Positions 7,358 through 16,729 of a DNA stretch of 40,534 bases are shown piece after piece. Position 1 is the first letter of the stretch. Every line of letters begins with the position of its first letter. Below the pieces are notes generated by a model that was not told the DNA's origin, did no database searches, and saw nothing but the letters and a program-made list of their open reading frames with translations. The stretch comes from Cytophagales bacterium. GTDB taxonomy: Bacteria > Bacteroidota > Bacteroidia > Cytophagales > UBA9547. The position numbers and the translations under genes were made by a program. The stretch lies in contig JACMRH010000519.1 in NCBI GenBank assembly GCA_014376535.1, positions 1 to 40,534 on the forward strand, given 5' to 3'.

Positions 7358-9787
7358 TTAATTTTTGTGATACCTATCAAACAGATCTAAAGCAATATTC
7401 ATTTTACCATCTTTCTCCCGTGCCCTTAAACGGAGATTTCCGTGTTGAATGTCTTTAATTTTAACATATTCGCTGTTTTGGTCTTTGAGGTTAGATAATG
7501 GTATTTGAATACTTAAATCTGTTTTGTGCTTAAAACTAAAGATGCCTTCCAGATAAAGACTTAATACAGTGGAACTCACAACCATTTTTTCAATATAAAG
7601 CTCCTCTCCTTCCAGAACAAAAATGTTATTAATTTCGTCAAAATGTATATGCATCATGTCCCGGTTCTTGAATACCAAATCACCTACTTTTTTTAAAGGT
7701 TCAAAGTTTTTTAACTGCCCTTGTGTTAATAACATACTCATTTTACCTTTAATTGTTCTCTGAATTGGCTCAAAGGATCTATTCGTTTGACAGTTAATAT
7801 TCACCTTTGCATCAATTAATCCAGCCAGGTTTTCATTAGTGAGTGAATTTTGTCCAAAATTGTTAAAACCATAAAAAAGTTTTGATGCATCAATATTTTT
7901 CAAATTGGCTTCTATTTTTACTTTACCTGAGTCGTTATCCTGAAAAATATAGGCCCCATTCATGGTAATTATTCCTTTTGTAGGCATAGATAATTTCCAA
8001 TTATTAAGAGATATGGCATCATTGGATATTCCAACATTGCCTTTAATTTCGTTTGTTATCAGCTTTTTATACTCGAATTGCTTTAGATAAACATCAAAAT
8101 CCATTTCCATTTTACTCATTATTTTATGCAGATGCCCCATAAAAGGCTTTGATGCATTCTTTTTAGAGTCTAATTTTTTATGTTCACTTTTAACAAGAAG
8201 TTTATTTAAATTAAAATAGGGAGAGGTTATATTCAGCTTTGCCTTTATATTATTTTCAGGAAAAAGAAGGTATGATACCATGTTATTTAATTCTCCTCCA
8301 ATGTGAACCTGATTATCATTGATCTTACAGGATAAATCTTTAACATTGACATTAGTATTGAGGAAATTTAAATCCCCATTAATATCTGAAAGGACAAGCT
8401 GTTTTTTTACAATGTCCATTTTCCCGTCATTAATTTTTAATCCAGCATTTATATATCCTTTCATCATAATAGGATCAGGAATGTTTTTTAAGGATATTGG
8501 GCCTTTTTGGGCAAGATTAAATGAAAAGGTACCATTAGAAAACTTATACACAGCGGTATCTAAATAGTGGTGAAAAGCCTTTAAAGGCCCGCTAACAACT
8601 GCATTGATATTTGTTTCTGGCACATTAAGGTTCTGAAGATTCCCGACCACTTTAAAATTTATTTCTTTATAATAAAAATCTGATGAGTTGATATTCAGAA
8701 TGGAATTTTCATCACTTGAGAGTTGTAAAGTATCAATGTGATTATTAAATTCTCCGTTTAGTTTTACATTATCAAGAAAATAATCAATTAACCTTACCCT
8801 ACTATTGTCAATCTGAAAATTAACTTTTGCAAAAGGTTGTACTCCTGGCTTTGTATCCAGAACCAAATGAACCTGAGCATTTAGGCCCTGGTCGACATGA
8901 AACTGATTGAGCACCTTTTGTAAATGTGTGTTTAATAAAGAGATTGCTTTACTGTAATCAGTGTTTGAAGTATTGATGTCAAGGTAAATAAGAGGCAATT
9001 TTTGGTTCAATCTGGATTTACCTGATACTTCGTAAAGCTGGCCCTGAGTACTTATAGTTGAAGGCAACAAAGTCAACAAGCTATCAGCTTGATTGTAGGT
9101 AAGGTTTAAGCTTAATTGTAACTCTTTGTTTTGAAGGAATGGTCCTTTTAGATTATTGAACAATAGGCCTTCAGAAAAAATCTGACCGTTTATATGGCAG
9201 GTCATTTCTTTATCAGATTTCTTTACGCTTATAAGTATATCATTACAAGCAAGTTGAATGCGCTTTTTTTTCTTATCATCTAAGTATACTAATGATACTT
9301 TTTTGAATATTATCTTTTTTAGGTTAAAATCCATCAGTGAAGATTTCACACTTCTTGTTGTGTCCGATTTTAATGTTTTCCGTGAGAACACTGATAAGTT
9401 TGAATACCCTAAAGAATCTTTAAAAATGTTAAAGTTGGCATTTTGGAGAATTATACTTTTTACATCAAGTTCTTTCTTCAACAATTTCAAAAGATGTATT
9501 TGCAAATAAACCTTTTCAGCTTTGATTACTTCATTGTTATAAACTGAGTCTTTTATTGTAAGTCCGATTAAAGTGACAGATACAGAAGGAAATTCCCGGA
9601 ATATGGTGAAACTTATATTATCTAAATGGGCGCTTCCAGCTATTCCATTATCAATTTCTGTATTGAAATAAGCAAGGATGTCTTTCTTATAAACACTTGC
9701 AACAGAGTATGATATAATGAGGAGACTTATTAGAAATAAGAAAATCCAGGAAAAAAGTTTAAAAATAAAAATAGTAGATCTTTTCAT
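7358..9787 (-). CDS. AsmA-like family protein
   Basis: N-terminal TM anchor, FREFPSVSV, long beta-rich body, C-terminal NFGQ..LT..NLAG, L.NFEPL, DLSIQIPL as in Bacteroidota AsmA-like proteins. Confidence 0.8.
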   Translation of the reverse strand: MKRSTIFIFKLFSWIFLFLISLLIISYSVASVYKKDILAYFNTEIDNGIAGSAHLDNISFTIFREFPSVSVTLIGLTIKDSVYNNEVIKAEKVYLQIHLLKLLKKELDVKSIILQNANFNIFKDSLGYSNLSVFSRKTLKSDTTRSVKSSLMDFNLKKIIFKKVSLVYLDDKKKKRIQLACNDILISVKKSDKEMTCHINGQIFSEGLLFNNLKGPFLQNKELQLSLNLTYNQADSLLTLLPSTISTQGQLYEVSGKSRLNQKLPLIYLDINTSNTDYSKAISLLNTHLQKVLNQFHVDQGLNAQVHLVLDTKPGVQPFAKVNFQIDNSRVRLIDYFLDNVKLNGEFNNHIDTLQLSSDENSILNINSSDFYYKEINFKVVGNLQNLNVPETNINAVVSGPLKAFHHYLDTAVYKFSNGTFSFNLAQKGPISLKNIPDPIMMKGYINAGLKINDGKMDIVKKQLVLSDINGDLNFLNTNVNVKDLSCKINDNQVHIGGELNNMVSYLLFPENNIKAKLNITSPYFNLNKLLVKSEHKKLDSKKNASKPFMGHLHKIMSKMEMDFDVYLKQFEYKKLITNEIKGNVGISNDAISLNNWKLSMPTKGIITMNGAYIFQDNDSGKVKIEANLKNIDASKLFYGFNNFGQNSLTNENLAGLIDAKVNINCQTNRSFEPIQRTIKGKMSMLLTQGQLKNFEPLKKVGDLVFKNRDMMHIHFDEINNIFVLEGEELYIEKMVVSSTVLSLYLEGIFSFKHKTDLSIQIPLSNLKDQNSEYVKIKDIQHGNLRLRAREKDGKMNIALDLFDRYHKN

Positions 9788-9921
9788 TGGTATTGAGTGT
9801 TAAAAAATAAAGCCATGAAAAAAACCGGCATTATATATTAAAAGAGACGTCAAGGCATTTCAAATTATTACAGAATTTAATTTCAAAAAATCATGATAAA
9901 ACATTATTTTCAAAATTTAAT

Positions 9922-9950
9922 TTTGTTTACAAACAATTTACGTATATTTG
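9922..9950 (+). promoter_or_regulatory. Bacteroidota sigma-A type promoter
   Basis: TTTG at 9922-9925 (-33) and TATATTTG at 9943-9950 (matches TAnnTTTG -7 element); spacer 17 nt, slightly short. Confidence 0.7.
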
Positions 9951-9953
9951 TGC

Positions 9954-10040
9954 ATGTTCAATCCCGAACACATATCGACACCTCTCAGGCTTTTACAAAG
10001 CCTAATTCCTGCATCGGATTCCTGTTGTTGTTGCTGCTAA
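9954..10040 (+). CDS. Poly-cysteine leader peptide (28 aa), putative attenuator sORF; absent from the ORF track
   Basis: Manual translation: MFNPEHISTPLRLLQSLIPASDSCCCCC*; ends TGT TGT TGT TGC TGC TAA; ATG lies 3 nt after the -7 promoter element; upstream of tRNA-Cys. Confidence 0.8.
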   Translation: MFNPEHISTPLRLLQSLIPASDSCCCCC

Positions 10041-10088
10041 TTTCCTATCCAGCTTCATTTTCATTTCTTTAATTTAAACTTCTTCGCT

Positions 10089-10358
10089 ATGAACAAGTCC
10101 GGAATCAAATTAACAAGTTTCAAAAATTTCCTAAATAAATATTTTATTTATCACTCAGATGGTATTGTTTTAAACACATATATCGATGTATTATCAGATT
10201 TCTCTGACCCTAGAGTCTCTTTCCTTGAATTGAATATTGAAAATGGCAACAATCGAAAAGATTGGCTTCACTACAGCTATTATCCTTATTTAGGAACCAG
10301 TTTAAATTTAAAAATTAAGGAAGAAAATACAACGTTTGGTTATTTGTATAATAACTAA
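10089..10358 (+). CDS. Hypothetical 89-aa protein between the poly-Cys leader and tRNA-Cys
   Basis: Open ATG..TAA frame filling the leader-tRNA gap; no family recognised; no Cys and no internal Met. Confidence 0.45.
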   Translation: MNKSGIKLTSFKNFLNKYFIYHSDGIVLNTYIDVLSDFSDPRVSFLELNIENGNNRKDWLHYSYYPYLGTSLNLKIKEENTTFGYLYNN

Positions 10359-10365
10359 ACTATTT

Positions 10366-10436
10366 GGCTACGTGTCCGAGTGGTCAGGTACGGGTCTGCA
10401 AAACCTTTTACAGCGGTTCGAATCCGCTCGTAGCCT
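10366..10436 (+). tRNA. trnC: tRNA-Cys (GCA)
   Basis: Acceptor stem GGCTACG/CGTAGCC, anticodon loop CT-GCA-AA (GCA at 10398-10400), T arm AGCGG-TTCGAAT-CCGCT, U discriminator; CCA not encoded (CCT follows). Confidence 0.95.
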
Positions 10437-10544
10437 CCTTTTTAATTAAAGATTAACAATTATTAATTAAAGTTTCACTGTAGAAATTGAACTATAAAAT
10501 TTTCTCTAATCTTACTTATTATGTCTTATAACTAAGATATTAAA

Positions 10545-11789
10545 CTAAACAATTTGTTTATTAAAACAGAAGATAAATTCAGTTCCCATGTTTTTTTGAC
10601 TGTTTACTTTAATCGAAACATTGTATTTATCTAAAAGCTTTTTCACAATATAAAGGCCCATTCCCGTTCCTTCAATATCCTGGTTATCCATTCTTTCAAA
10701 TAGGTTGAATAACTTCCCTTTTTCTTCATCATTCATTCCCCGACCATTGTCTGCAACTGATAAATATTTTATTCCATCAAGAGTTGTAAAGTTTAATTTC
10801 AAATAAGGATCCCTATCAGGGTGTTTGTATTTTATCGCATTGGTAATGAGATTATAAAGCAAACTTTTAAAAGCCACTCTATTAAATGTAAAATCTTCTA
10901 CTTCAGAAAAGTTATTAACTATTACTGAATTGGATTTATTTATCAAAGAAGCTATACTGGTTTCAATTTCTTCTAATACTGGTTTTACTTTAAAAGTTTC
11001 GAAAGAAGTGCCTTCATTTTCCTTTCTGATAATATCTATCAGTTCGTTTATGGTGTTTTTTAACTGCACTATTGCACCTCCCTGCATCTTTAGTATTTCT
11101 AAAACATCTTCTGGAATAGGACTTTCCAGCTCGTCTTCTAGTGCACTAATTAAGGCTTCCAGGTTTGCAACTGGCAGTTTAAGGTCGTGGGAAGCGGTAT
11201 AAACAAATTGATCAAGGTTGTTATTTAGAGATATTAGCTTTTGGTTATAAATCTGTAATTCAGCCTCAATAGTTTTTCTTTTCTCTATTTCGGAATTGAG
11301 GTCAGTATTTTTCTTGTTCAGGTCCGATGTTCTTTGTTGTACGATCAATTCCAGGTTATTGTATGCCTCTTCCAGTTTCCTTTGTTGAATATAGATATCT
11401 ATAAAAGAATATACTTTAGAACGGGTAATTACAGGATCTAATGGCTTGAACAGGTAATCAACCGCTCCCTTGCTGTAACCTTCTGAAACATATTTAGTTT
11501 CATGGTTCATTGCGGTGACGAAAATGATCGGGATATTTTGGGAAGTCTTCGATTTTTTTAAATAAGAAGCGACCTCATAACCATCCATTTCTGGCATTTG
11601 CACATCTAAAAGTATTAAGGCTATGTCGCCTTTGTATGCTATTTTTAGTGCTTCATTGCCCGAAGTTGCGCGAAGAAAATTAACTGATCTTTCTTCCATG
11701 TTTAGCAAATTTTCCAGTGCATATATATTTTCTTCCTTATCATCCACTATCAGGACGTTCACAGAAATATTTTTTTGATTTGAATTCAT
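10545..11789 (-). CDS. REC-HisKA-HATPase hybrid histidine kinase/response regulator
   Basis: VLIVDD, LLDVQMPEMDG, FVYTASHDLKLP, NLITNAIKY, DNGRGM, GTGMGL. Confidence 0.93.
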   Translation of the reverse strand: MNSNQKNISVNVLIVDDKEENIYALENLLNMEERSVNFLRATSGNEALKIAYKGDIALILLDVQMPEMDGYEVASYLKKSKTSQNIPIIFVTAMNHETKYVSEGYSKGAVDYLFKPLDPVITRSKVYSFIDIYIQQRKLEEAYNNLELIVQQRTSDLNKKNTDLNSEIEKRKTIEAELQIYNQKLISLNNNLDQFVYTASHDLKLPVANLEALISALEDELESPIPEDVLEILKMQGGAIVQLKNTINELIDIIRKENEGTSFETFKVKPVLEEIETSIASLINKSNSVIVNNFSEVEDFTFNRVAFKSLLYNLITNAIKYKHPDRDPYLKLNFTTLDGIKYLSVADNGRGMNDEEKGKLFNLFERMDNQDIEGTGMGLYIVKKLLDKYNVSIKVNSQKNMGTEFIFCFNKQIV

Positions 11790-11793
11790 TTAA

Positions 11794-12381
11794 CTAAACC
11801 GTTGACATTAATAATGACTGTATTTCATTAAGTTTCAATACGTAATCTACCTTTACTTTTTCAATGGCAGACATGGGCATTGTTTTACTAATCGCTTCCA
11901 TGGGATCCTGGACTATAGTAAGACCACCCATTTCAGATATTGTTTTTAATCCCTGGCTTCCATCCGAATTTGCACCTGTCAATAATATCCCGATAAGTTT
12001 TTTTCTAAATACCAATGCAGCACTTTCAAAAACAATATCAATTGATGGCCTGGAAAATAAAACATTTTCCGACACATCTAAAGAAAACGTTTTATCCTTT
12101 TCTATAAAGACATGATAATTTGCAGGTACAAGATATATTGTTCCTGGATGTATTCTCTCTTTGTCGGTAATTTCTTTAATAGAAAGGCGTGTATTTTTCT
12201 TTATAACAGAACACAAGCTACTCTCAACATTTTTTTGACGGTGCATTACTACAATTATTGGCAAAGGGAACAAAACAGGCAAATCCTTAATTATTTTAAT
12301 TACTGCCTCCATTCCTCCCCAGGACCCACCAATAACAATTGCTTCGTAGACCCCTTTACTAATTTCCTTTAACTTTTCCAT
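11794..12381 (-). CDS. cheB: CheB-type methylesterase without a receiver domain
   Basis: IGGSWGG (Ser), VMHR (His), LTGANSDG (Asp), SRPSID, TIVQDP, MP.SAI. Confidence 0.92.
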   Translation of the reverse strand: MEKLKEISKGVYEAIVIGGSWGGMEAVIKIIKDLPVLFPLPIIVVMHRQKNVESSLCSVIKKNTRLSIKEITDKERIHPGTIYLVPANYHVFIEKDKTFSLDVSENVLFSRPSIDIVFESAALVFRKKLIGILLTGANSDGSQGLKTISEMGGLTIVQDPMEAISKTMPMSAIEKVKVDYVLKLNEIQSLLMSTV

Positions 12382-13209
12382 TCAAGAAATCCTTCTGTAT
12401 ATCTTTTCCTTACTGTCTATTACCTCAAAATTCTTCCTGTACTTTGAGGTACTTAAAGATTCTTTATTACCTAAAACAAGGTATCCAAAAACAGGGAGAC
12501 ATTCAAGGAACTTCCCAATGACCCTTTCTTGCAATTCTTTTTGAAAGTAGATTAATACATTTCTGCACACTATAAGATGAAACTCATTAAAGGATGCATC
12601 ACTAACCAGATTATGAGTAGAATATGTTACGTTGGCCTTCAATTGTTCATTCATTATTGCATTGTTATATCTAGCAAAATAGTAATCTGACAATGAAGTA
12701 TGCCCACCTGCATGGATATAATTTTTAGAGTAATCTTTCATATAAGCCAATGGAAAAATTCCTTCTAATGCCTCATTAATTACTTTTTGATTGATATCAG
12801 TAGCATAAATCCTTGTTTTTTTTAATATCCCCTCTTCCTTAAATAATATAGCAAGAGAATATACTTCCTCACCAGTGGAACAACCTGCATCCCAAATCCT
12901 AATATGAGGATACGTATCCAATTGAGGTACAACTTTTGCACGCAACTCTTTAAAAAAACCAGGGTCACGGAACATTTCTGTGACATTTACTGTAATTTCT
13001 AAAAGAAAATTATTGAAATGTAGTTGGTCCAAACTCAAATAATCTTTTAATTCCTGGACATTAGAAATTTTCATATTTCCCATGTATCTCCTTATCCGTC
13101 TTTGGAATGAGGCTATCGAGTAGGAAGTAAAATCGAATCCATATCTCTCTTTTATTAACAAAAGCAGATCAGTATATACATCATCGCTAAATTCTAGGAT
13201 TGCGGACAT
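12382..13209 (-). CDS. cheR: CheR-type protein-glutamate methyltransferase
   Basis: YGFDF, TVNVTEMFRDP, RIWDAGCSTGEEVYS, IYATDIN, CRNVLIYF. Confidence 0.95.
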   Translation of the reverse strand: MSAILEFSDDVYTDLLLLIKERYGFDFTSYSIASFQRRIRRYMGNMKISNVQELKDYLSLDQLHFNNFLLEITVNVTEMFRDPGFFKELRAKVVPQLDTYPHIRIWDAGCSTGEEVYSLAILFKEEGILKKTRIYATDINQKVINEALEGIFPLAYMKDYSKNYIHAGGHTSLSDYYFARYNNAIMNEQLKANVTYSTHNLVSDASFNEFHLIVCRNVLIYFQKELQERVIGKFLECLPVFGYLVLGNKESLSTSKYRKNFEVIDSKEKIYRRIS

Positions 13210-13216
13210 GTTAGTT

Positions 13217-16200
13217 TTAATTCTGGTAAAGCCAAACTCTCATTAAAGAAATAAGCTTTGGAATATCTATTGGTTTTGATGCATAATCTGAAACACCTGC
13301 TGCCAGGCATTTTTCTTTATCACCAGGCATTGCTTTTGCAGTTACAGCAATTATTGGAAGATTTTTAAATCTTTCATCTGTTCTCAAAACTTTAGTTGCT
13401 TCGATACCATCCATTTCAGGCATCATAATATCCATTAATACAATTTGTATATCTGGGTTTTTATTAAGCTCATCTATAGCCTGTTTTCCATCATAGGCCA
13501 CAAAAACTTCCATTCCCTGATCTTCCAAGACATTGGTCAAAGAATAAATATTTCTCATGTCATCATCAGCAATAAGAACCTTTTTGTATTTTAAAGTGGC
13601 TTCAGATTTATTGAGATTCTTCAGAAAGTATTCTGCTTTATTCAGGGATTTATCTATGCTAAATAGAAACAACTTGACTTCTTCCAATAATCTGGTGTAT
13701 GAATAAGCCGTTTTTATTATAATGGTATTAGCATACTTTTTATAGGCTGCTTCTTCCTTTTCACTTAGGTCTTTACCAGAATATATGATGACTGGTATAT
13801 TTTTAATGTTTTCAGTTTTTCTTATATTTTCCAGAACTTGGTAACCTGTCATATCTGGAAGGTTAATATCAAGAATTACACAGTCGAAATCTTTGTCCAA
13901 AAGCATTTTCAGTGCTTCATCTCCAGAAAATGCACTTTCGGAAACAAGTTTCTGGGTAAACAGAAGTTCTTTTACTGCGTTATTTTCAATTGTATTGTCC
14001 TCTACTATTAAAACAGTTTTAGTGGGGGTTAAATCTTCATTTCTGTTAATATTACCTAAAGTTTGGTCTAACATCTGCAGGGTCAGTGGTTTTGGAATAA
14101 AGGTAGCCTGCCCTAATTCATTGGATCCTTCCTTTTCAAATGCTGACATCAAATGAACCGGAACCTTTTTCAAAGCCAAATCATTTTTAAATTTCCTGAG
14201 AACTTCCCATCCTGTTGTATCAGGAAGCTGGATATCGAGTAAAATAGCATCCGGAATACAGTTTTGGGCAAGTTCAAAACCAGTTTTTCCATTGTTTGCC
14301 GTGAATACTTCATAACCCTTTTTCTCTGCGTAATCTACCAGGATATTGCAAAAGTAGAAATCGTCTTCAATAATCAGTATCCGTGTTTTTCCACCTTTTA
14401 TTTTCTCCTCCTTTAATTCATAAACAGGTTCCGGTTTTATTATTTGTTTTACAGTTTTAACTGGCTCAATCCTCTCCTCATTTTCAATAGGTTGAGGTTT
14501 ATCAAGGAAATATGGTAAGTAAAGTGTAAATGAACTTCCAATTCCTAACTGACTTTCAAACTGGATCTCGCCTCCCAATAATGCTGCAAGATCACGGCTA
14601 ATTGTTAATCCAAGGCCAGATCCACCAAACTTTCTTGTAGTAGAAAGATCAGCTTGCTGAAATGCTTCAAAAACTATATGCTTTTTGTCATCGGCAATTC
14701 CAATCCCGGCATCTTTAACAGTAAAAGCAATTGTTTCATTGTGTTTCAATTTAGGATTAGTAAACTTTACCTCATTGCTGGCTTTGTGAATTTCATATTC
14801 AATAGATTTCTCTTTCGCAGTAAATTTAAAAGCATTTGACAAGAGGTTTTTTAGAATTTGTTCTACCCGAAATCTGTCTGTATGAATAGTTTCCGGTAAA
14901 GAAGGGTCTAGAATTGTTTGGAAATCAATCTGCTTTTCAACGGCCAGATCTTTAAACTGATTCTCCAGGTTAAATTCAGCAATTTTATAATCGCTAAGTT
15001 CAAGATTCACTTTTCCAGATTCAATGCGGGCAAGGTCAAGGATTTCATTGATCAGTTTCAGTAAGTCATTTCCAGATTTTTCAATAACACCAGCATGCTG
15101 AGACTCTTTTTCTGAAAGTGTATTGTTCCTGTTGTCTTTTAAAATTTTGGCCAGAATCAGAATACTATTTAAAGGAGTCCTTAATTCATGAGACATATTG
15201 GCAAGAAAATCTGATTTGTATTTACTTACCGTTTCAAATTGTTCCATTTTTAGCTGAATGGCATCCTTAGCATTTACCAGTTCCTGGTTTTTGTATCTTA
15301 ATCTTTCATATTGTTCTTCTAATTCATTGGTTTTCTCTTCCAATTCAGCATTTTTTTCCTGCAATTCCTCCTCACTTGTCCTTAATTCTTCTTCTGAGGC
15401 TTGCAAAAGATCTCTTTGAAAGCGTATTTCTTCATTTATCTGCCTTAACTCCTCTTGCTGGGCTTCAAGTTCTTCCGCTTGATTTTGAGTTTGTAAAAGA
15501 AAATCTTCAGTCTTCATTTCTGACTTTATAGCGAATAAAAATGTAGAAACTGTAAGGTTGATACTATTTAAAAACTCTAAATCCTTCTGGTCAAAATCGT
15601 CTTTGTGAATCAGTTCAACAACAGCTATAGTTTTATCGTGATGAAAGAATGGAAGGATGAGAATACTTGAGGGCTCTATGTTTAGAAAAGTCGATTTTAT
15701 TGTCAGACTGCTTTCAGGTATGTCTTTTACCAATGTAGGTTTCTTGTCCAGTACAGCCTGGCCTAGTAAGCCCTCTCCTTCTTTAAAATTCAAACGAGTA
15801 TTTGAGCTCAGATCAAAAGCAAATTGATTTTCCAGATTAAAAACCTCCTTATCGTCCAGAATAAATAAAATTCCTGAATAGCTTTTAGTAAAATCACATA
15901 AAAACCTTAGCAACTTATCCCCAAAGCTTTTCAATTCTCGTTCTGGCCTCAACAAATCATTTAATTCTGTAGACTTCGAAAGCAGATAATTATTTTTGTT
16001 TAATTCAATTTGATTTAATAATATCTGCTCATTGTTTTGCTCCAATTCAGAATTAAGCCTTAGAAGTTCTTTTGCGCTAAGTTCTCGTGCTTCAATATCT
16101 TTTGAAATTACATAAAACGATAACAGTGAAACCATTACAGCAATAAACGAGGTAATCCCAATTATGTAAGGTGTTATAGTGGCGAACCGATCTGTACCGC

Positions 16201-16729
16201 TTGTCCGGATTACCAACAATCTATCTTCTTCATTTTTCAATTCGGCAATAATTGCCCGGCATTTAAACATGATATCCCTGCCTTGAAGAATATCATTTTT
16301 AGACACTTTATGTTGAGACTTATATACTCTTAATACAGAATCAAGCTTGGCAAACCTTAAGTCTATATTTAATTTTAATCTCTCAATGCTTTTCTGTTGG
16401 CGGTTATTATCCGTAGTTAGAATCCTGACTGTTTCCAAAGATTCCATTGATCTTTCATAACTACCGTTGTAAAGATTTAGGAAATCTTCTTCACCGGAAA
16501 GCAAATATCCCCGCTGAGAAGTTTCACCATCTTTAATTGTGGACAATACATTTTCTAAACTTTTTAATACAACATTGGTATGGTCTACCTGTTTCGATAG
16601 CCTTATTAATTCTTTAATGCTGAAAAAAGATAATAAAGAACTTATGATTAAGATGAATAGTGAAAACCCTAAACCAATCTGAATTTTTTTACTGAGGTTT
16701 ATTTTTGAAAAATTAAAATTTGTCATCAA
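13217..16729 (-). CDS. Membrane hybrid sensor kinase: CHASE3-GAF-coiled coil-HisKA-HATPase-3xREC
   Basis: TM, VDHT..V and ETSQRGYLL (CHASE3), GEGLLGQA (GAF), FLANMSHELRTPLN, NLLSNAFKFT, GGSGLGL; three receivers beginning ILIIEDD, VLIVEDN, VLIADDD. Confidence 0.93.
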   Translation of the reverse strand: MMTNFNFSKINLSKKIQIGLGFSLFILIISSLLSFFSIKELIRLSKQVDHTNVVLKSLENVLSTIKDGETSQRGYLLSGEEDFLNLYNGSYERSMESLETVRILTTDNNRQQKSIERLKLNIDLRFAKLDSVLRVYKSQHKVSKNDILQGRDIMFKCRAIIAELKNEEDRLLVIRTSGTDRFATITPYIIGITSFIAVMVSLLSFYVISKDIEARELSAKELLRLNSELEQNNEQILLNQIELNKNNYLLSKSTELNDLLRPERELKSFGDKLLRFLCDFTKSYSGILFILDDKEVFNLENQFAFDLSSNTRLNFKEGEGLLGQAVLDKKPTLVKDIPESSLTIKSTFLNIEPSSILILPFFHHDKTIAVVELIHKDDFDQKDLEFLNSINLTVSTFLFAIKSEMKTEDFLLQTQNQAEELEAQQEELRQINEEIRFQRDLLQASEEELRTSEEELQEKNAELEEKTNELEEQYERLRYKNQELVNAKDAIQLKMEQFETVSKYKSDFLANMSHELRTPLNSILILAKILKDNRNNTLSEKESQHAGVIEKSGNDLLKLINEILDLARIESGKVNLELSDYKIAEFNLENQFKDLAVEKQIDFQTILDPSLPETIHTDRFRVEQILKNLLSNAFKFTAKEKSIEYEIHKASNEVKFTNPKLKHNETIAFTVKDAGIGIADDKKHIVFEAFQQADLSTTRKFGGSGLGLTISRDLAALLGGEIQFESQLGIGSSFTLYLPYFLDKPQPIENEERIEPVKTVKQIIKPEPVYELKEEKIKGGKTRILIIEDDFYFCNILVDYAEKKGYEVFTANNGKTGFELAQNCIPDAILLDIQLPDTTGWEVLRKFKNDLALKKVPVHLMSAFEKEGSNELGQATFIPKPLTLQMLDQTLGNINRNEDLTPTKTVLIVEDNTIENNAVKELLFTQKLVSESAFSGDEALKMLLDKDFDCVILDINLPDMTGYQVLENIRKTENIKNIPVIIYSGKDLSEKEEAAYKKYANTIIIKTAYSYTRLLEEVKLFLFSIDKSLNKAEYFLKNLNKSEATLKYKKVLIADDDMRNIYSLTNVLEDQGMEVFVAYDGKQAIDELNKNPDIQIVLMDIMMPEMDGIEATKVLRTDERFKNLPIIAVTAKAMPGDKEKCLAAGVSDYASKPIDIPKLISLMRVWLYQN

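Follow-up and report, generated by a model that had tools for sequence, protein, structure and literature searches.

A polycysteine leader reading frame associated with an accessory tRNA-Cys gene in a Cytophagales bacterium

The locus described here raises the question of whether a bacterium may adjust the supply of one tRNA to the extent to which that tRNA is charged. It lies in a 40,534-nt stretch of DNA (the window) taken from contig JACMRH010000519.1 of a Cytophagales bacterium assembly (GCA_014376535.1, designated G000), and consists of a leader open reading frame (ORF) ending in a run of cysteine codons, a spacer, an 89-codon ORF, a gap and a tRNA-Cys(GCA) gene, all on the plus strand (Table 1). 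A sequence-only reading of the window had described this series, with a 48-nt spacer, a 7-nt gap and flanking minus-strand genes, and was confirmed in each of these parts and in their positions. It had also proposed that the tRNA gene is controlled by its own charging level. That proposal is borne out as far as the recurrence of the leader, its link to the tRNA and the lack of a consensus promoter for the tRNA are concerned, and it does not stand in its view of the 89-aa ORF as an orphan or in its separation of the locus from cysteine metabolism. The element is best read as a cysteine-sensing leader of the mycobacterial polycysteine type in a member of the Bacteroidota, which probably also governs a spare tRNA-Cys. 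Slightly better than even credence is given here to the reading that the whole locus would be transcribed as a unit and that its short, near-leaderless ORF would respond to how much Cys-tRNA(Cys) is available and govern both the 89-aa ORF and the accessory tRNA-Cys.

The window leader is no chance ORF. G000 as a whole has 17 ATG-started ORFs of at most 70 aa in which a run of at least three Cys comes no more than three codons from the stop. All but three of them fall inside long open frames, and two of the exceptions are the window leader and its paralog, which is carried by contig C403 of this assembly. Runs of at least four TGY codons number 47 on both strands together and are mostly off-frame within genes. 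The whole unit is present at the orthologous site of a congeneric genome (G002), between the same flanking genes and at 77% identity, so that leader-tRNA synteny is kept in this relative. The leader orthologue of G002 is MFKPEHISTSLRFNQDLLCTSDFCCCCR and the 28-codon paralog on C403 is MFNPELISQFTRNGNLFFQMFNRCCCCC; the N-terminal MFNPE.IS is common to all three leaders, and Cys is kept between the copies though the choice between TGT and TGC varies. Identity to G002 is 81% for the leader, 75.5% for the spacer, 74% for the 89-aa ORF and 70 of 71 bases for the tRNA, and falls to 58% in the upstream intergenic DNA, below that of leader and spacer. Synonymous divergence from G002 is 0.42 in the leader, below the 0.68 and 0.78 of the flanking genes, which suggests a constraint on the RNA itself; the dN/dS of the leader is 0.39.

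Short ORFs of the same kind were found in the window, G002, C403, a genome of another family (G400), the loci L083/L115 and L033, and twice in a further genome (G109), and were tallied as seven examples in five sequence types, with the Cys run always 0 to 2 codons before the stop. The G400 leader, MNHSAFDLRPKIRTPKQSCCCCCPC, stands 51 nt before a 394-aa gene resembling a lysine-less O-acetylhomoserine sulfhydrylase (OAHS)-like clade described below; a gene for a YeiH-family putative sulfate exporter follows, and no tRNA is present. The exporter gene occupies 46-1305 of L191 (G400:C464) on the minus strand, directly after the OAHS-like gene. Among 191 loci scanned, canonical metY is preceded by poly-Cys short ORFs in L083, L115 and L033, and metY-metX is among the genes downstream of such leaders. 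At these three loci the poly-Cys ORF starts about 20 nt past a SAM-I riboswitch aptamer (55-56 bits; gathering score 44.4), and the aptamer with its ORF extends over 2573-2761 in L083, 2572-2761 in L115 and 2441-2681 in L033. The pair may be a tandem sensor of S-adenosylmethionine (SAM) and cysteine, present in two unrelated lineages of Bacteroidota. Since leaders precede both OAHS-like and metY genes, the leader type appears to belong to the regulatory region of this enzyme family. On the favoured reading, the cassette descends from the regulatory region of OAHS-family genes, and the window holds a reduced version of it. These occurrences support the poly-Cys ORF as a real and recurrent leader of regulatory type.

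The tRNA of the unit is itself unusual. ARAGORN places it at 10366-10438 and Rfam scores it at 52.4 bits over 10366-10436 (gathering score 29); a cloverleaf, the GCA anticodon and the U discriminator are present, U73 being an identity element of tRNA-Cys. G000 has three tRNA-Cys genes among its 35 tRNAs. The housekeeping tRNA-Cys of the genus, which follows an rpsA-like gene on contig C274 and has the same sequence as the copy in genome G003, has a form (GTGGCCGAG...AGGCAGAGG) that recurs in 17 further genomes of the order and scores 62 bits without a flagged pair. The window, G002 and C403 tRNAs share the pairs U10·U25 and C27·U43 and score 51-53.5 bits. The C403 copy (L022 359-429, minus strand) has in addition an A1·G72 mismatch, absent from the other three accessory copies, which is either a sequencing error or real. 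When up to two mismatches were allowed, the accessory pattern matched three genomes (G000 at two sites, G002 and G109) out of the 401 of the order, and 1 of the 13 genomes of the family of G109; G109, which is 100% complete, also has an ordinary tRNA-Cys. None of 400 other genomes of the class contained the accessory form, their 19 pattern matches all being of the ordinary G10/C25 form and mismatched at exactly the two diagnostic positions, and none was found on viral contigs. From its sequence and distribution the accessory tRNA-Cys is classed here as a distinct extra subclass, with its unusual pairs kept across two families.

All four accessory tRNA copies lie downstream of a poly-Cys short ORF on the same strand, the distance being 67 nt in one case, about 0.33 kb in two and about 1.3 kb in the last. 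They represent three independent contexts, the window and G002 being orthologues. No poly-Cys ORF was found in the 1.5-kb flanks of 18 ordinary tRNA-Cys loci (L003-L020), and none upstream on the strand of the tRNA at a second set of 19; at one of these 19 (L230) there are two 13-codon ORFs with three Cys, located on the opposite strand or well downstream, and L227, from an unpublished genome, was left out of the ordinary set. At the G109 locus a single TACCTTTG box, about 115 nt, the leader MKNPSPVEYVWYYPIAGNDIVHQAKKSQSKRRCCC, 67 nt and an accessory-type tRNA-Cys (U10·U25, U27·U43, 50.4 bits) follow one another on one strand, with no protein gene between leader and tRNA. Past the tRNA come 120 nt, a second leader (MNTPKNTQLSTLQVSAKCITNLKHAQGRCCCCR), 195 nt and a SusC-like TonB-dependent receptor gene, and a gene for an Rrf2-family regulator is transcribed divergently. 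The locus occupies 3661-8204 of L224 (G109:C121), where a ChrB/AraC-type gene lies beyond the Rrf2 regulator. The second leader hints at a set of cysteine-sensed operons in Bacteroidota. As a genomic association, judged by these counts, the tie between leader and accessory tRNA is well supported, and the G109 locus appears to be the strongest support for the idea, put forward in the sequence-only reading, that leader and tRNA belong together.

The 89-aa ORF had been taken for an orphan, and that view is not upheld. A search of G000 with its product led to the start of the 403-aa ORF on C403 (product P0001), to residues 1-60 of which it aligns with a BLASTP E value of 4e-10; the profile of the lysine-less OAHS-like clade to which P0001 belongs was matched with an hhalign probability of 88%. 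The homology is confined to the clade-specific N-terminal 50-60 residues, no Pfam or NCBIfam family matched the 89-aa product, and the product lies outside the O-acetylhomoserine/O-acetylserine (OAH/OAS) sulfhydrylase family profile. Against G002 the ORF shows 31.3 synonymous differences in 49.3 sites and 41.7 non-synonymous differences in 217.7 sites, with no indels. The dN/dS is 0.16, with a non-synonymous divergence of 0.19 against a saturated synonymous divergence of 0.64; with synonymous sites close to saturation, more trust is placed in the pN/pS of 0.30. A search of 5.8 billion protein clusters found three members of the family, each exactly 89 aa long and 67-78% identical. By this pattern of substitution the ORF is under purifying selection and no dead remnant, a selected derivative of the N-terminus of a gene resembling O-acetylhomoserine or O-acetylserine sulfhydrylase. 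In a separate assembly of sequencing run X1 (probably the source sample, hence not independent of G000), a loose end before 10363 carries FGFLYNN-stop, the C-terminal end of a third variant, separated from the same tRNA by a few bases, and is weak evidence for a third case of ORF-tRNA adjacency. The earlier statement that the unit holds no Cys biosynthesis gene is correct for the window, where only the 89-aa derivative is present; a link to Cys/Met metabolism is nevertheless given by the OAHS-like homology of its N-terminus and by the same type of leader before full-length family genes without a tRNA.

The paralogous operon on C403 places the same parts beside sulfur genes. On the minus strand of this contig a TAATTTTG box, 4 nt, the leader, a 58-nt spacer and the ORF for P0001 are followed after 21 nt by a tRNA-Cys and after a further 47 nt by a gene for a family 2A encapsulin shell (NF041162, 497 bits against a cut-off of 380, 280 of 295 positions), which is broken by the contig end. 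G000 yielded no further shell gene, and G001-G004 and G400 yielded none; at the other 18 shell loci of the order, neither a tRNA nor a poly-Cys ORF lies within 1.5 kb. P0001 matches Pfam Cys_Met_Meta_PP (PF01053) with an E value of 1e-34 and scores 172 bits on the OAH/OAS sulfhydrylase model TIGR01326, below the cut-off of 495. Of 232 proteins with E values of at most 1e-30, 13 clusters (P0001-P0013) make up the clade, and the remainder are canonical enzymes of at most 38% identity. Twelve full-length members, 43-79% identical to P0001, were aligned; P0013 is a 267-aa fragment. In all 12 the Schiff-base lysine of SATKWIGGHG (SxTK motif) is Asp or Glu, the SGxAA motif is replaced and about 23 residues near the C-terminus are missing. 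The position of the canonical pyridoxal phosphate (PLP) lysine aligns to Asp in a comparison with PDB 8ovh, and the conserved lysines of the clade sit 8-10 residues past it, so that the proteins may still be active. The N-terminus of the clade is also replaced relative to canonical sulfhydrylases. The canonical PLP lysine site thus appears to be lost, and as the clade is conserved at 43-79% identity its members are likely pseudoenzymes or enzymes of altered mechanism, a prediction from the alignment. A clade member at an E value of at most 1e-65 is present in G000 and G400 alone among 401 genomes of the order, and scans of genome and metagenome contigs with the clade alignment returned, among the matches listed, canonical sulfhydrylases only, at up to 36% identity. 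No poly-Cys leader precedes either the canonical PF01053 enzyme that G000 also encodes (455 bits) or its CysK-like gene, whose 305 bits fall narrowly short of the cut-off. A part of the OAHS-like N-terminus in encapsulin cargo was weighed and is not claimed, as G400 has the protein and no shell gene was found in it.

A single promoter is predicted for each unit. The Bacteroidota-type promoter before the window leader is the only -33/-7 pair in 9800-10445, and exact TAnnTTTG boxes near the unit occur only at 9918 and 9943. One exact box stands before the leader in each of the four units with an accessory tRNA (window, G002, C403, G109), and none before the tRNA in any of them or before the encapsulin gene of C403; the earlier observation that the window tRNA lacks such a box held, no exact plus-strand box being found from 9951 to the tRNA. 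From the end of the -7 box to the leader ATG there are 3 nt in the window and in G002 and 4 nt in C403. In Flavobacterium the sigmaA box is reported at -12 to -5 (PMC9723704), and by this rule the predicted transcription start is the A of the ATG in C403 and within 1 nt of A9954 in the window. The leader ORF is therefore predicted to be leaderless or nearly so in the window, G002 and C403; predicted 5' untranslated regions are about 25 nt in G400 and about 115 nt in G109. A scan for sigma-70 sites returned 5 where 5.1 were expected and was uninformative.

In mycobacteria, polycysteine leaderless short ORFs are described in which a ribosome that stalls within the Cys tract prevents a duplex that would mask the ribosome-binding site belonging to the next gene (10.1101/834739). 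A comparable switch may be drawn for the window. With ample charged tRNA-Cys the ribosome would complete the leader and depart; the segment 5' of the Cys codons would then pair with codons 5-6 of the 89-aa ORF, a local hairpin would hold the ORF start codon, and the ORF would be poorly translated. The untranslated C-rich and G-poor RNA would be open to premature termination or decay, and little tRNA would be made. When charged tRNA-Cys is scarce, the ribosome would stall on the five terminal Cys codons and cover the pairing segment, the start region would open, the ORF would be translated and the transcript would reach the accessory tRNA-Cys. By its C-minus-G excess the spacer ranks within the top 1.4% of all 50-nt windows of the genome for both the window and G002 (6% for C403, 13% for G400), a composition that would suit Rho loading. 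The hairpin at the start codon has eight pairs that are paired in all three copies, five of them invariant and three with one-side changes; in G400, C403 and L083/L115, CAA-rich sequence ahead of the main start codon could pair with the Cys run itself, being its complement. The minimum free energy (MFE) fold has a z-score of -1.35. Stalling, the RNA switch, co-transcription and the change in tRNA level are what we infer from this arrangement. The predicted pairings would bear on how well the ORF is translated. For the leader to control the tRNA as well, polarity of the Rho type or a change in transcript stability would be required, and this step, a loss of polarity or a stabilisation of the transcript, is the weakest part of the model.

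The leader would gauge how much tRNA-Cys is charged and turn on a dedicated spare tRNA-Cys, so that feedback acts on the decoder itself; this is a tentative proposal with rather less than an even chance of being right. The spare tRNA may be adapted to function once the ordinary tRNA-Cys has been depleted or damaged, as it might be by a toxin that cuts tRNA-Cys, such as that described as VapC4 of mycobacteria (PMC13096801); alternatively, it may pull scarce cysteine toward protein synthesis in sulfur starvation. Family 2A encapsulin systems are reported to be induced by sulfur starvation (PMC10836720, PMC8049743), which fits a cysteine-sensing leader on C403.

Several results weigh against control of the tRNA by the leader, or against parts of the model. 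Three of the five genomes of the genus, one of them 100% complete, yielded no copy of the unit, and leaders without any tRNA stand at four loci (G400, L083, L115, L033). A purely translational switch alone would not change tRNA output, and more tRNA would bring no obvious benefit when cysteine itself is limiting. In the window and in G002 the predicted start is the U of the AUG, one base late, and the AUG would be lost if the start were strictly at +5; leaderless mRNAs are, moreover, reported to be rare in Bacteroidota (3.7-5.5%). No terminator-like hairpin was found in 9700-10700, and with no hairpin between leader and ORF classical attenuation is not supported. Covariation predicted for the long-range helix is suggestive, three of its six pairs changing on both sides yet staying paired and two being broken in C403, and comes from three sequences, two of them orthologous, with a structure derived from these same sequences. 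When set against dinucleotide shuffles, the duplex between the Cys-run footprint and the start region reached significance at no locus, with p values of 0.06-0.13 for five loci and about 0.55 for the remaining two.

Some of these results bear directly on an account in which the leader governs only the translation of the next protein gene, the 89-aa ORF in the window and OAHS-like genes or metY elsewhere, and the tRNA is a passenger made at constant level and carried along with sulfur-starvation cassettes. tRNA genes within protein-gene operons are known, which is in its favour, as are the missing terminator, the predicted pairings aimed at the start region of the ORF, the translational nature of the mycobacterial precedent and the four loci where a leader has no tRNA. 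It is difficult to reconcile with G109, where the tRNA follows the leader after 67 nt and no protein gene lies between them, or with an upstream leader at 4 of 4 accessory-type and 0 of 37 ordinary tRNA-Cys genes, and the unusual pairs kept across two families argue for a dedicated role of the tRNA. A passenger tRNA is regarded as unlikely, though less so than the two accounts that follow.

The leader product could instead be functional in its own right, as a cysteine-rich micropeptide that binds metal or sulfur or is the precursor of a modified peptide, and no sensor. In its favour are the C-terminal CCCCC, which does not vary in kind, the MFNPE.IS common to the window, G002 and C403 peptides, and the dN/dS of 0.39; the peptides of G400, G109, L083 and L033, however, share only the Cys run with the window leader, no modifying enzyme or exporter adjoins the window unit, and the ORFs stand in leader-like position, at the 5' ends of operons and after SAM-I aptamers. 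A micropeptide is regarded as quite improbable. Least probable of all is that the window unit is a functionless, decaying remnant of a C403-type operon, reduced to leader, truncated gene and tRNA, as might be read from the alignment of the 89-aa ORF to only the N-terminus of the 403-aa protein and from the absence of the unit among the matches in three of five genus genomes. A decaying ORF would not be expected to stay open, free of indels and exactly 89 aa long in three variants at 67-78% identity, or to show a non-synonymous divergence of 0.19 beside a saturated synonymous 0.64, and the tRNA remains identical to that of G002 at 70 of 71 bases, with leader and spacer conserved above intergenic DNA.

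With cysteine sensing by the leader retained as the preferred reading, the closest described relatives are the mycobacterial polycysteine short ORFs (Canestrari et al., 10.1101/834739), which, as described there, likewise have a Cys run near the stop and no terminator hairpin; the window leader is predicted to share their position at or near the 5' end of the transcript, and pairing between the region of the Cys run and the start region of the next gene is predicted in both. Their targets are tied to cysteine and sulfur metabolism, as are those here (OAHS-family genes, the encapsulin 2A shell, metY-metX). The present leaders differ in belonging to Bacteroidota, with no Shine-Dalgarno use and a different promoter, in having as target a lysine-less OAHS-like gene or its 89-aa derivative, in the dedicated tRNA-Cys of the unit, and in being known here from sequence alone. 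Cys leader peptides had been predicted earlier in Actinobacteria (PMC1262725). The uORFC-8-2 before cysS of Rhodobacterales (PMC8632094) is likewise a Cys-codon leader on the decoding side rather than that of biosynthesis, and differs, as reported, in its two tandem Cys codons within a stem, its terminator with a U run and its protein-gene target. With the trpL, hisL and pheL attenuators (PMC3082878 for pheL) the leader shares a short ORF rich in the sensed codon, where ribosome speed sets, or in the window would set, the fate of the downstream RNA; those attenuators are described for biosynthetic operons, and no terminator/antiterminator pair was found in the window unit. Rho-dependent control of the tna type (cited in PMC1262725) resembles it in a stall site, a proposed one in the window, beside the leader stop and followed by C-rich, G-poor unstructured RNA, and differs in that the tna stall is described as needing the nascent peptide and free tryptophan, not tRNA charging. 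The C403 paralog, which ends in a 2A shell gene, resembles the family 2A (cysteine desulfurase) encapsulin operons (PMC8049743, PMC10836720); the four operon types described in these sources hold rhodanese, serine acetyltransferase, shell and desulfurase genes, to which C403 would add an OAHS-like gene, a tRNA and a Cys leader.

The literature search found no Cys leader in Bacteroidota and no leader control of a tRNA gene, with limited coverage of subscription journals. Leader-peptide control is textbook knowledge, and to our knowledge its known targets are biosynthetic, transport or synthetase genes. The supposed precedent of a Phe-rich leader before the tRNA-Phe genes of Escherichia coli proved to be wrong: the roughly 100 nt before pheV and pheU of strain K-12 hold no such ORF. 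The window leader appears to be a new Bacteroidota member of the cysteine-codon leader kind, and its tie to an accessory tRNA is new so far as the literature was searched. In three separate gene contexts a sensor of this kind is linked to an unusual extra tRNA whose amino acid is the one that would be sensed. If the tRNA is regulated, translation capacity for one codon family would be tunable by its own demand, and accessory tRNA isodecoders in bacteria would gain a function. Cysteine-sensing short ORFs would be extended from Actinobacteria to Bacteroidota, a phylum without Shine-Dalgarno use, and the lysine-less sulfhydrylase-like family and the encapsulin link are pointed to as parts of a sulfur-starvation response.

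Table 1. Positions of the predicted elements of the window unit and of the paralogous operon on contig C403
Feature	Sequence	Positions	Strand	Details	Source
Bacteroidota-type promoter	window	9922-9950	+	-33 TTTG 9922-9925; -7 box TATATTTG 9943-9950	pattern scans
Leader short ORF	window	9954-10040	+	28 codons, MFNPEHISTPLRLLQSLIPASDSCCCCC then stop; stop 10038-10040	
Long-range helix, 5' strand (predicted)	window	10017-10022	+	GATTCC; abuts first Cys codon	RNAalifold, three copies
Five Cys codons	window	10023-10037	+	TGT TGT TGT TGC TGC, abutting leader stop; proposed ribosome stalling site	
Spacer	window	10041-10088	+	48 nt, C-rich and G-poor (12 C, 2 G)	
Hairpin enclosing start codon of 89-aa ORF (predicted)	window	10078-10098	+	ACTTCTTCG / TGAACAAGT	
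89-aa ORF	window	10089-10358	+	derived from N-terminus of lysine-less OAHS-like clade	
Long-range helix, 3' strand (predicted)	window	10101-10106	+	GGAATC; codons 5-6 of 89-aa ORF	RNAalifold
Gap between ORF and tRNA	window	10359-10365	+	7 nt	
Accessory tRNA-Cys (GCA)	window	10366-10436	+	U73, U10·U25 pair, C27·U43 mismatch	ARAGORN, Rfam
T5 run	window	10439-10443	+	three bases past tRNA discriminator base; similar T5 after G109 copy	
Leader	C403 (L022/L023/L199)	2363-2277	-		
403-aa ORF	C403 (L022/L023/L199)	2218-1007	-		
tRNA-Cys	C403 (L022/L023/L199)	988-917	-		
Encapsulin shell gene	C403 (L022/L023/L199)	869 to contig end	-		

The minus-strand genes on either side of the unit occupy 7358-9787 and 10545-11789. 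The upstream neighbour encodes a DUF748/AsmA-like membrane protein and the downstream neighbours a hybrid histidine kinase, CheB and CheR, none of which are sulfur genes. The minus-strand cluster of CheR, CheB and hybrid histidine kinase-response regulator genes with a 1170-aa ORF (10545-16729) converges on the unit and has no evident link to it. An Rfam scan of 9000-11500 with E values up to 10 returned only chance-level matches beyond the tRNA, and no family besides tRNA was found in the L022, L002 and L191 copies or in G109. Assembly G000 comprises 551 contigs with 36% G+C and is 94% complete with 5.6% contamination; its promoter motif and the naming of homologues both indicate Bacteroidota. 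One contig of the X1 assembly (depth 9.5, with a 23-nt side) joins 9919 to 10130; it probably represents foreign AT-rich DNA and was set aside. A single contig of the same X1 assembly covers 9700-10392 with two base differences from the window.

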